DNA of 44,753 bases from Candidatus Odinarchaeota archaeon (GTDB lineage: Archaea; Asgardarchaeota; Hermodarchaeia; Hermodarchaeales; Hermodarchaeaceae), in the NCBI GenBank assembly GCA_048885185.1, contig JBHLQC010000001.1, positions 1 through 44,753 of the forward strand. The letters run 5' to 3'. Shown piece by piece: positions 10,892-29,554 of this stretch. How positions within the stretch are numbered: the stretch's first letter is position 1; the number at the start of each line of letters is the position of its first letter. The notes beneath the pieces are model-generated. The model was given only the letters and a program-made list of their open reading frames with translations. It was not told the origin of the DNA and searched no databases. The translations under genes were made by a program, and so were the position numbers.

Positions 10892-11716
10892 ATGCATTTG
10901 AAATTAATAAAAAACGAACCGGCTCTACTTCTTCAGGAAGGTTCACGCCGTATTTTAGTTGTGGCAGATTTGCACATCGGATACGAACGCACACTCTTCA
11001 AACAGAATCAGTACTCATCCAATCTAACTAGCAGGATTATTCAGCACTTCGATAACTTGGTTTCGACAACCAAACCAAGTGAAGTTATAATCTTGGGTGA
11101 TCTCAAGCATTCTATCAGAGAATTTTCTAGACAAGAGTTTCATGAAGTTGCGCAACTATTACACCGGATTCAACAAAAAGTGTCAATAACCATAATCCGT
11201 GGTAACCATGATGCAGACCTGGAGTTAGTCGTTCCTGACAACACAGCTATTATCCCGTCTTCGGGTCTAAGAATTAAGTTTCGTTCCCAACATGTCTATC
11301 TTCTCCACGGTCATGCTCAACCCACTGCAGAAATTTTGACTTGTGATAGTCTTCTTATGGGTCACATTCACCCAACTTTGGCACGTCCTACACTTCAAGG
11401 ACCAATGCGCACTCATCGAGTTTGGGTTAGGACCAAATGGCAACCAACGATTCTAGATGCAATTGAATCATGGATAGGAAAAGAGGCGGTCACCAATGAG
11501 CAAGAACGGATTCAACAACTTCTCCAAATGAAAATCTTAATTTTACCAGCCTTTCTTGACCTGCTTCAAGGTCATATCTTAAACCGCACTAAACCCAAGG
11601 AACCAGCCGGTACACCGATATTTCGATATCTCTCAATGGGAGAGGCAGAACTTTTCATGCTCGATCAAACTCCGCTTGGGAAACTCAGCCAACTACGCCA
11701 ACAAAACTCGTGCTGA
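10892..11716 (+). CDS. Calcineurin-like metallophosphoesterase (SbcD/Mre11-related archaeal family)
   Basis: 274 aa carrying the full metallophosphoesterase motif set: VVADLHIG, GDLKH, RGNHD, LLHGH, GHIHP. Confidence 0.8.
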   Translation: MHLKLIKNEPALLLQEGSRRILVVADLHIGYERTLFKQNQYSSNLTSRIIQHFDNLVSTTKPSEVIILGDLKHSIREFSRQEFHEVAQLLHRIQQKVSITIIRGNHDADLELVVPDNTAIIPSSGLRIKFRSQHVYLLHGHAQPTAEILTCDSLLMGHIHPTLARPTLQGPMRTHRVWVRTKWQPTILDAIESWIGKEAVTNEQERIQQLLQMKILILPAFLDLLQGHILNRTKPKEPAGTPIFRYLSMGEAELFMLDQTPLGKLSQLRQQNSC

Positions 11717-11759
11717 AAAGAAACATTTTAAGCTGAAATTCCCTGTATCCTGCCACGCT

Positions 11760-11958
11760 GGGTCGATGGTCTAGATTCCCGGGGAACTCGATTTCCCGGA
11801 CTAGTTTGGTATAGAAAAAGGAACTAGTTCCTTTTATCGCCAAAGATTCGCGGTTCGGGACCAGGAGTTTTACACAAACTCCCGGCGGGAATCCGTGAGA
11901 TCCGGGGTTCAAAACCAGGAAGTATTTCTAACTGGGGAAAATCCCCGTCGGCCCACCA
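11760..11958 (+). tRNA. tRNA-Pro(CGG) interrupted by four introns, CCA encoded
   Basis: Acceptor stem is GGGTCGA/TCGGCCC, followed by A73 and CCA. Introns lie at 11777-11806, 11813-11844, 11860-11891 (canonical 37/38) and 11914-11941 (59/60). Each is bounded by a 4-bp helix flanked by two 3-nt bulges. The spliced product is GGGTCGA TG GTCT AGATTGGTA TGAT T CGCGG TTCGGGT CCGTG AGATC CGGGG TTCAAAT CCCCG TCGGCCC A CCA. The anticodon CGG sits at 11856-11858, with G37. ORF 11685-11912 (-) is spurious. Confidence 0.8.
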
Positions 11959-12040
11959 CTAACCTTTTTGAACGTTGATTTTTTTGGAGAAAGTTCGTCA
12001 ATTAACGTAAATTTGCGTAAAGCACTTAAACTATGATACG

Positions 12041-12790
12041 ATGCGTGTAGCTATGCCCGTGGCGGCACAGATTAGACAACGACTTGCTCGACGTATAGCT
12101 GGGGAAATATCCTTATCCGATCAACCAGGTCGTGTAATGAGACAATGGAGAGAAATGTTCCATATCCCCCAAATTCAATTAGCCGAATCTTTGGGGGTTT
12201 CTCCTTCAGTTATCAGCGATTATGAGAGTGGTCGCCGCCAGTCACCAGGCACTAAAACCATAAAGCGTTTTGTTGAGACCATCATTACTTTGGATGAGCA
12301 CAACGGTGGACAGGTAGTCAATGCTTTTCAACGCTTGATGGGTGTGGAGATTCCAACCAGTATAATATTGGACATTCGTGAGTTTAGCAAAGGTGTTACC
12401 GCAATAGATCTGCTTGAAAGTATCCGCGCGCAGGTTGTTGCAGGTGAAGAGGCGTTAGAACGAGAGGTGCTGGGCTATGTGGTCGTTGATACCACAAAGG
12501 CGCTAGACGTTTTATCAAGCAACGGTTTTCGAAAACTCTTTGAATCAACAGGAGAACGGGCATTAATACTCGTAAATGCCTCAACAGGACGCTCCCCATT
12601 AATTACGGTCAAAGACAATTTTAAACCAAGTCTTTTTGTATTACATGGTGTAGAACAACTGGATTATCTCGCTATTGAACTCGCTAATAGAGAAAGAGTT
12701 CCTTTAGCAGTGTCGCGTATGGAATCAATTGAAGGTATGTTACGAAAGTTACAAATCCTTGGGAAATATTCCCTTAACGAAAAAACATGA
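12041..12790 (+). CDS. XRE-type HTH transcription regulator with an archaeal C-terminal domain
   Basis: 249 aa. The HTH is IPQIQLAESLGVSPSVISDYESGRRQSPG. It resembles the conserved archaeal family of putative HTH-type regulators. Its TGA overlaps the atpF ATG (ATGA at 12787-12790). Confidence 0.7.
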   Translation: MRVAMPVAAQIRQRLARRIAGEISLSDQPGRVMRQWREMFHIPQIQLAESLGVSPSVISDYESGRRQSPGTKTIKRFVETIITLDEHNGGQVVNAFQRLMGVEIPTSIILDIREFSKGVTAIDLLESIRAQVVAGEEALEREVLGYVVVDTTKALDVLSSNGFRKLFESTGERALILVNASTGRSPLITVKDNFKPSLFVLHGVEQLDYLAIELANRERVPLAVSRMESIEGMLRKLQILGKYSLNEKT

Positions 12791-17693: not shown

Positions 17694-17829
17694 GCGGCCG
17701 TGGTCTAGTGGTTAGGATTTAGGCCTCCCATAGACCGAATGCAAAACCGATCTGGAGATCGCCTATAGCCCGGGTTCAAAAAATCAACTTGCTTGACGAG
17801 TTGGCTGGAAAATCCCGGCGGCCGCACCA
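17694..17829 (+). tRNA. tRNA-Gly(CCC) with two introns, CCA encoded
   Basis: The structure reads GCGGCCG TG GTCT AGTGGTTA GGAT T TAGGC CTCCCA|intron 17731-17759|C GCCTA TAGC CCGGG TTCAAA|intron 17781-17812|T CCCGG CGGCCGC A CCA. The 37/38 intron has a textbook BHB, with CTCC/GGAG helix and bulges CAT and ATC. An oligo-T tract follows. Confidence 0.85.
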
Positions 17830-25813: not shown

Positions 25814-25888
25814 GGGGTGGTAGATCAGCGGTAGATCGCGTGTCTCGCACACACGAGGCCCCGGGTTCAAATCCCGGCCACTCCACCA
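25814..25888 (+). tRNA. tRNA-Ala(CGC), no intron, CCA encoded
   Basis: The structure reads GGGGTGG TA GATC AGCGGTA GATC G CGTGT CTCGCAC ACACG AGGCC CCGGG TTCAAAT CCCGG CCACTCC A CCA. A G3.U70 alanine identity pair is present. It begins 14 nt after the valS stop. Confidence 0.9.
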
Positions 25889-25956
25889 ATACAAAATCAG
25901 CTTTGGCAAAATCCATATAAACGAAAAAAGTCTACGCGCATCCACGCACATCATGT

Positions 25957-26033
25957 GGGCCGGTGGCCTAGCTTGGTAGGGCACTCGGCTGATAACCGAG
26001 AGGTCGCGGGTTCGAAGCCCGTCCGGCCCACCA
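25957..26033 (+). tRNA. tRNA-Ile(GAU), no intron, CCA encoded
   Basis: The structure reads GGGCCGG TG GCCT AGCTTGGTA GGGC A CTCGG CTGATAA CCGAG AGGTC GCGGG TTCGAAG CCCGT CCGGCCC A CCA. An oligo-T tract follows. Confidence 0.9.
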
Positions 26034-27100: not shown

Positions 27101-27197
27101 TGGCGCGGAGTAAGGGATTTGAACCCTTGCGACCACGAAGGTCACTGGATGACTCGTTCATCTCGAGTCCAGCGCGTTACCGCTCCGCCAACTCCGC
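27101..27197 (-). tRNA. tRNA-Ser(CGA), class II, with an 11-nt canonical intron, CCA encoded
   Basis: The minus strand reads GCGGAGT TG GCGG AGCGGTAA CGC G CTGGA CTCGAG|ATGAACGAGTC|A TCCAG TGACCTTCGTGGTCGC AAGGG TTCAAAT CCCTT ACTCCGC G CCA. The intron lies at 27151-27161. It has a long variable arm and discriminator G73. Confidence 0.85.
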
Positions 27198-29476: not shown

Positions 29477-29554
29477 AGCGGGGTGGGGTAGCCAGGATAT
29501 CCCGCGGGGCTCATAACCCCGAGATCGGTTGTTCAAATCAGCCCCCCGCTACCA
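29477..29554 (+). tRNA. Initiator tRNA-Met(CAU), CCA encoded
   Basis: The structure reads AGCGGGG TG GGGT AGCCAGGATA TCCC G CGGGG CTCATAA CCCCG AGATC GGTTG TTCAAAT CAGCC CCCCGCT A CCA. The A1:U72 pair and three consecutive G:C pairs closing the anticodon stem are archaeal initiator hallmarks. Confidence 0.9.

Follow-up and report, generated by a model that had tools for sequence, protein, structure and literature searches.

A predicted tRNA-Pro(CGG) gene with four bulge-helix-bulge introns, conserved among Hermodarchaeota (Asgard archaea)

The window, i.e. the whole 44,753-nt stretch of DNA analysed here, has a GC content of approximately 42% and carries at 11760-11958 of the forward strand a 199-nt gene for tRNA-Pro(CGG) that is interrupted by four bulge-helix-bulge (BHB) introns. 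This locus is situated in a gap of 324 nt that separates an ORF of a metallophosphoesterase-like protein (10892-11716) from a gene of an HTH regulator (12041-12790), after which come the genes of the F and A subunits of a V/A-type ATPase. This synteny is common to Hermodarchaeota, Thorarchaeota and Odinarchaeota MAGs. The identical 199-nt locus and an identical adjacent HTH protein occur in both GCA_976602415.1 and GCA_016550385.1 (same or near-identical strain). The HTH protein is 94% identical to its counterpart in Candidatus Hermodarchaeum yapensis, and its more distant relatives are found in MAGs of other Hermodarchaeota, Thorarchaeota, Odinarchaeota and Atabeyarchaeia.

A promoter-like box, AGAAACATTTTAAG (11719..11732, forward strand), precedes tRNA position 1 by 41 to 28 nt. 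Four orthologs (L005, L006, L007 and L008) have exactly the box of the window, slightly different versions occur in L009 and L010, and the metagenome contigs L085-L088 contain the box as well; its position and composition suggest an archaeal BRE/TATA-like promoter. Between this box and the tRNA there is a leader block, TGTATCCTGC (11744..11753, forward strand), which precedes the mature 5' end by 16 to 7 nt. The block is shared by the window with L005, L006 and L008, and L007, L009 and L010 have variants of it. It could be an initiator region or a leader element. Downstream of the gene, T-runs at 11965-11969 and 11979-11985 of the same strand likely serve as archaeal transcription termination signals, and the orthologs are likewise trailed by T-rich tracts.

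The gene consists of five exons of 17, 6, 15, 22 and 17 nt, all on the forward strand. Exon 1 (11760..11776) encodes the 5' strand of the acceptor stem (GGGTCGA), U8 and G9, the 5' strand of the D-stem and the D-loop up to position 17; it is identical to the corresponding part of L011, an ortholog in which the D-loop site is intron-free. Exon 2 (11807..11812) is a 6-nt micro-exon, TGGTAT, which corresponds to positions 17a, G18, G19, 20, A21 and U22 and is unchanged in every ortholog. Exon 3 (11845..11859) comprises the 3' strand of the D-stem, position 26, the 5' strand of the anticodon stem, U32 and U33, the anticodon CGG (11856-11858) and G37. Exon 4 (11892..11913) contains position 38, the 3' strand of the anticodon stem, the variable loop, the 5' strand of the T-stem and T-loop positions 54-59, and exon 5 (11942..11958) supplies U60, the 3' strands of the T-stem and of the acceptor stem (TCGGCCC), A73 and an encoded CCA (11956-11958).

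Removal of the introns in silico gives a 77-nt sequence, GGGTCGATGGTCTAGATTGGTATGATTCGCGGTTCGGGTCCGTGAGATCCGGGGTTCAAATCCCCGTCGGCCCACCA, which was called tRNA-Pro(cgg) by ARAGORN. Its acceptor stem has 7 bp (one G.U) with G1-C72, followed by A73 and CCA, and the other landmarks are U8, G18, G19, A21, U33, the anticodon CGG (C34 G35 G36), G37, a T-stem of 5 bp and the T-loop UUCAAAU. The sole irregularity is a mismatch of U13 and U22 (U13.U22) within the D-stem; the D-arm that carries it (GTCTAGATTGGTATGAT) has the same sequence in the tRNA-Pro(CGG) genes of Atabeyarchaeia and Odinarchaeota. An earlier, sequence-only reading of this DNA had proposed a tRNA-Pro(CGG) with G37, an intronic share of 61% and a 74-nt body plus CCA after splicing. 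The ARAGORN call bears out the identity, the introns occupy 122 of the 199 nt (61%), and the 77-mer obtained is identical to the exons of L011.

Intron 1 (11777-11806, 30 nt) is inserted into the D-loop between positions 17 and 17a. Its helix H, CTAG/CTAG, stands between the bulges ATT and TTT (in these and all other bulges given here the predicted cut falls after the second nucleotide), and a 1x1 position that is never paired separates this bulge and H from an inner hairpin of 8 bp. Intron 2 (11813-11844, 32 nt) is located at site 22/23, with H formed by TGGT/GCCA, the bulges ATA and AAG and an inner helix of 2+8 bp with one bulged A. Intron 1 has no outer helix and intron 2 has no stable one in the primary transcript, and both are assigned to the relaxed HBh' type. 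Intron 3 (11860-11891, 32 nt) occupies the canonical site 37/38 and is framed by H TTCG/CGGG and the bulges GGA and AAT; it has an inner helix of 9 bp with one A.C mismatch, and its outer helix h is the anticodon stem, which makes it a strict hBHBh' motif. Intron 4 (11914-11941, 28 nt), in the T-loop at 59/60, has the bulges AAA and AAT, an inner helix of 4+2 bp and the T-stem as the outer helix h, and is near-strict hBHBh'. The inner helix h' is present in all four introns and h only in introns 3 and 4. All four introns are on the forward strand.

The sequence-only reading had framed each interruption by a 4-bp helix flanked by two 3-nt bulges. This description holds for introns 1, 2 and 3 and fails for the helix of intron 4, where H (TTCA/GGAA) consists of 3 bp, UUC/GAA, and an A57.G mismatch. 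A mismatch at this place (A.G or A.A) is kept in 7/7 of the intron-4-bearing sequences examined. The BHB frame, i.e. H and the bulges, is conserved among all orthologs. Motifs 1 and 2 abut and overlap by a single nucleotide, T11807, which is both the third nucleotide of the 3' bulge of motif 1 and a member of the first H pair of motif 2. The two motifs enclose the 6-nt exon.

The unspliced locus received no call from ARAGORN, with or without the intron mode, and had no match in an Rfam cmscan search, either at the gathering threshold or at E<=10. Such silence is expected given four insertions and is not evidence against the gene. The ARAGORN test that had been suggested for this locus thus came out in line with the prediction for the spliced 77-mer, which was called tRNA-Pro(cgg), while the raw locus gave no call. 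The Rfam scan at the gathering threshold missed all Hermodarchaeota orthologs. The gene of L011, with its 37/38 intron retained, reached 42.3 bits with the Rfam tRNA model (RF00005), whose gathering score is 29; this match came only from a permissive scan of a small region, and the score is that of L011, whose exons are identical to those of the window.

The tRNA-Pro gene is syntenic across the GTDB species representatives of Hermodarchaeota, upstream of the HTH gene. In five GTDB species (L005-L009) it contains four introns at the same sites as in the window and is 199-201 nt long. The ortholog in L010 has three introns, with the D-loop intron alone absent, and the ortholog in L011 has only the 37/38 intron, while its exons are 100% identical to the spliced 77-mer of the window. 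Hence, intron 1 is absent from both L010 and L011, introns 2 and 4 are absent from L011, and intron 3 is missing from none of the Hermodarchaeota orthologs examined. Four further four-intron copies (L085-L088), one of them with new intron sequences, were found when metagenome contigs were scanned with a gapped pattern. The four-intron state occurs in at least six species-level lineages.

These relatives allow the exon-intron boundaries to be placed. The three non-canonical junctions are confirmed by L011, whose exons equal the spliced 77-mer base for base, and cutting after the second nucleotide of each bulge reproduces exactly the exon sequence of this intron-lacking ortholog. Some junctions in the window are ambiguous by one base owing to repeated nucleotides. 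The junction of intron 1 is fixed by the bulges ATA and CAT of L009, that of intron 2 by the 3' bulge ACG of L010, and that of intron 4 by the 3' bulge ACT shared by L008 and L010; with these bulge variants the junctions become unambiguous, both cuts falling after the second bulge nucleotide. The earlier proposal had given exactly these coordinates and this cutting rule, and had placed the introns in the D-loop and at 22/23, 37/38 and 59/60. The coordinates are upheld by the comparison with L011 and L010 together with covariation, the positions by the dissection of the motifs and the orthologs, and the cutting rule by the exons of the intron-lacking ortholog and the bulge variants.

Exons and introns evolve in markedly different ways. 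Over the exons, five orthologs are 100% identical to the window, L006 is 98.7% and L010 93.5% identical; the changes in L010 include a compensated T-stem pair (C-G to U-A). Intron identity is 56-79%, apart from the near-identical L005, and the neighbouring protein is only 61-78% identical across species with near-invariant exons. The motifs were aligned one by one because a whole-gene MAFFT alignment (A2) misplaced gaps. A pair was counted as compensatory when it was changed on both sides, and the 3' partner slid by 1-3 columns was used as a control. In intron 1, 97% of cells were paired with 4 compensatory pairs (6 orthologs; slid controls 21-58%). The corresponding values were 92% and 3 pairs for intron 2, where the percentage is lowered by a 5' arm that is one column off in the rows of the window and L005 (A4), 90.5% and 5 pairs for intron 3 (8 orthologs), and 89% and 5 pairs for intron 4; over the four motifs the slid controls had 20-60% of cells paired. 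The H helices of introns 1 and 2 were paired in 100% of cells, and the bulges measured 3 nt in all orthologs. As read from these alignments, the pattern marks introns of which nothing but the splicing structure is maintained, within a tRNA body under strong purifying selection. By the same comparative evidence, the gene structure is far beyond chance, given the identical exons of L011 and the four structures kept by compensatory changes.

The order of genes for tRNA-Pro, the HTH regulator and the ATPase is conserved across Asgard classes, and intron content varies freely within it. The Odinarchaeota tRNA-Pro(CGG) gene (L012, 3085-3193) has one D-loop intron. In Thorarchaeota (among L014-L034) the corresponding gene is tRNA-Pro(TGG); its intron number is 0, 1 or 2, and one of the introns found lies in the D-arm near 21/22-22/23. 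The tRNA-Pro(CGG) gene of Atabeyarchaeia-1 (L013, 2432-2528) has one intron near 28/29.

Outside the tRNA-Pro locus, which they miss, ARAGORN and Rfam detect three to four ordinary tRNA genes in the window. Genes for tRNA-Ala(CGC) and tRNA-Ile(GAT) are located 68 nt apart at 25814-26033 of the forward strand and are intron-free. A gene at 27101-27197 of the reverse strand (53.1 bits in Rfam) was labelled 'tRNA-His (atg)' by ARAGORN; after removal of an 11-nt canonical intron (ATGAACGAGTC) the same program reports tRNA-Ser(cga), which is the better reading, and the gene was assigned to tRNA-Ser(CGA) with a long variable arm and G73. ARAGORN also called a tRNA-Met(cat) at 29477-29554 of the forward strand, which was not reported by Rfam at the gathering threshold. 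It has an A1:U72 acceptor end, as is typical of archaeal initiator tRNA.

A tRNA-Gly(CCC) gene (17694-17829, forward strand, 136 nt) contains two BHB introns. The one at 37/38 (17731-17759) has H CTCC/GGAG, and the one at 59/60 (17781-17812) has H TTCA/GGAA and the bulges AAA and AAT, the same frame as that of intron 4 of the tRNA-Pro gene. The spliced 75-mer was called tRNA-Gly(ccc) by ARAGORN; the unspliced gene is absent from the whole-window scans with ARAGORN and with Rfam at the gathering threshold. Thus, the six tRNA genes of the window have 0, 0, 0, 1, 2 and 4 introns, which shows that the intron load is very uneven between genes of this genome. A custom scan for acceptor and T-arm sequences found no second copy of tRNA-Pro(CGG) in the 44.7-kb window.

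In the proposed processing scheme, a single precursor of approximately 200 nt would be transcribed from the BRE/TATA-like promoter some 30-40 nt upstream and would end at the T-runs. Each intron with its flanking exon sequence may fold into a bulge-helix-bulge motif, whose 3-nt bulges, by analogy with archaeal tRNA splicing, would each be cleaved by EndA after the second nucleotide, and the same analogy suggests an RtcB-type ligase for joining the exons. The product would be a 77-nt tRNA with the anticodon CGG, G37, A73 and the encoded CCA. Introns 1 and 2 would require an enzyme of broad specificity, since they lack a stable outer helix (relaxed HBh'), and cleavage would rely on a tolerant enzyme also because of the mismatch in H of intron 4 and the extra unpaired position in intron 1. 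The 10 ORFs of the window that were checked with Pfam gave no match to any EndA family. The four Asgard MAGs surveyed by Kaneta et al. (2018) encode an (alpha-beta)2 EndA with an L1 loop, which is associated with the cleavage of relaxed motifs (PMC5829648).

The four motifs and the acceptor, anticodon and T stems can be accommodated in a single structure free of pseudoknots (-67.4 kcal/mol). Folded without constraints, the 199-nt precursor has its energy minimum at -78.9 kcal/mol in a different fold, which does not contain H of intron 1; the four-motif structure is approximately 11 kcal/mol above this minimum. The thermodynamics of the whole precursor is a poor test here, since the minimum-energy fold departs from a four-motif structure that is itself stable and compatible.

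The arrangement of the first two introns bears on the order of splicing. Between the overlapping motifs 1 and 2 lies a hexamer exon whose main anchorage is its pairing with intron 2; cutting both motifs simultaneously would release this hexamer. Thus, one of the two introns must probably be cut and its exons ligated before the other is cut. Ordered intron removal was demonstrated by RT-PCR of intermediates for a three-intron tRNA of C. merolae (PMC3728597), and the tRNAscan-SE 2.0 paper anticipates order dependence for closely spaced introns (PMC8450103).

The gene structure, the junctions, conservation and structural covariation are documented directly by the analysis, and they suggest, with a probability of about 90%, that the locus serves a Hermodarchaeota (Asgard) archaeon as a functional gene for tRNA-Pro(CGG), composed of five exons and spliced by the endonuclease. 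That neither ARAGORN nor Rfam (up to E<=10) recognises the raw locus is what one would also expect of a decaying tRNA-Pro pseudogene that has accumulated insertions while a working gene operates elsewhere in the genome. The selection pattern makes this explanation highly improbable and strongly disfavours it: the exons are invariant or, as in the T-stem of L010, changed only in a compensatory manner despite the 61-78% identity of the neighbouring protein; the inserts evolve fast, yet their helices persist through double-sided changes; the upstream promoter box is conserved; and exactly excisable frames are preserved in ten independent sequences, which is not expected of a dead copy. It is also very unlikely, if slightly less so, that only some of the segments are spliced, for example with the D-loop and/or 22/23 inserts retained or removed otherwise, and that the true number of introns is two or three. 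The relaxed HBh' form of introns 1 and 2, their one-nucleotide overlap and the lack of H of intron 1 in the minimum-energy fold would fit such partial splicing, and the counts of R2DT and tRNAscan-SE differ for many Asgard genes in a published table, so such calls can be uncertain. However, the inserts are missing precisely in L010 (D-loop) and L011, at single-nucleotide resolution and with the same mature D-arm, and the complete pairing of H in motifs 1 and 2 and the constant 3-nt bulges argue for their excision. Retention of an insert of 30-32 nt in the D-arm would abolish the tertiary interaction of G18/G19 with the T-loop.

Another explanation accepts the splicing and asks whether the introns are more than tolerated insertions, acting as a modification guide (box C/D-like) or as a shield against integrating elements. 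The four-intron state in at least six species-level lineages is compatible with a benefit while not requiring one. Such a function appears unlikely, because the primary sequence of the introns is poorly conserved outside the motif frame and because the one- and three-intron relatives have the same exons, from which it follows that this tRNA can be made without the introns. As for a box C/D guide RNA, both the C box (TGATGA) and the D box (CTGA) are absent from the locus, and this candidate was rejected. The preferred reading is that of a functional gene, from which four introns would be spliced.

Several genes with a comparable number of introns are known. The tRNAscan-SE 2.0 paper puts the number of introns in a tRNA gene of archaea at 'up to three' (PMC8450103), and the sequence-only reading had tentatively given three as the published maximum; this agrees with the former source and is superseded by four-intron Freyarchaeia genes (PMC11291895). 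In Atabeyarchaeia and Freyarchaeia, introns are present in 92-95% of tRNA genes, with several introns in over half of them and up to four per gene (PMC11291895), and Supplementary Data 4 of Valentin-Alvarado et al. (2024) includes intron-4 columns (PMC11291895). Four introns were assigned by both tRNAscan-SE and R2DT to the Freyarchaeia tRNA-Arg(TCT) and tRNA-Ile2(CAT, 101.7 bits), and by R2DT only to Leu(GAG) and to Trp(CCA) of Atabeyarchaeia-2 (PMC11291895). For tRNA-Pro(CGG), a single intron is given in all three Atabeyarchaeia/Freyarchaeia genomes tabulated (PMC11291895), and that of Atabeyarchaeia-1 was confirmed on L013. Since four-intron tRNA genes are already contained in these supplementary data of 2024, the four introns described here tie the tabulated maximum and do not exceed it. 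The multi-intron genes of Atabeyarchaeia and Freyarchaeia belong to the same superphylum, whereas the gene described here is a different one and comes from another class, Hermodarchaeia. The four-intron genes published earlier are confined to a supplementary table (PMC11291895); the Hermodarchaeota gene is supported in addition by a presence/absence series of its introns and by covariation. In the literature searched, no discussion of Hermodarchaeota tRNA introns was found.

Thermoproteales provide a close parallel with their three-intron tRNA genes, for example tRNA-Pro(UGG) of Pyrobaculum islandicum, which has introns at 25/26, 37/38 and 56/57 (Sugahara et al. 2007/2008, cited in PMC4090602). 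These genes are likewise cis-spliced, combine canonical introns with non-canonical ones in the D- and T-arms, have relaxed BHB motifs and reside in hosts with (alpha-beta)2 endonucleases. Compared with these, the present gene has four introns and uses other sites (17/17a, 22/23 and 59/60), the last two of which have been recorded before as non-canonical (PMC4090602). The hosts also differ, an Asgard archaeon with approximately 42% GC here and a hyperthermophilic crenarchaeon in the case of the Thermoproteales genes. The present DNA comes from an Asgard archaeon (Hermodarchaeota) and not from Thermoproteales. The nuclear tRNA genes of Cyanidioschyzon merolae likewise have multiple BHB introns in the D-arm, at 37/38 and in the T-loop (PMC3728597). 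This organism is a eukaryote, has a maximum of three introns, and its order of removal comes from RT-PCR, whereas the Hermodarchaeota gene is known from its sequence.

The finding overturns no concept. It extends the extreme tRNA intron load from Atabeyarchaeia and Freyarchaeia to another Asgard class. If annotation uses detectors such as those applied here, the tRNA complements of Hermodarchaeota MAGs, and the inferences on completeness and decoding drawn from them, may be underestimated, since the tRNA-Pro gene was missed by ARAGORN and Rfam and the tRNA-Gly gene by the whole-window scans. The relatives with one, three and four introns and near-identical exons represent clean material on intron gain or loss, and the abutting motifs around a 6-nt exon pose a concrete question on the ordering of cleavage and ligation. 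A bolder proposal, to which we give somewhat less than even odds, is that, among cis-spliced tRNA genes well supported by comparison, this one may be the most fragmented, combining a stepwise series of one, three and four introns within Hermodarchaeota, on an unchanging tRNA body, with an obligatory splicing order. If true, the gene would provide a natural system for studying endonuclease-ligase coordination on closely packed sites, and would show the accumulation of BHB introns in the archaeal lineage nearest to eukaryotes.
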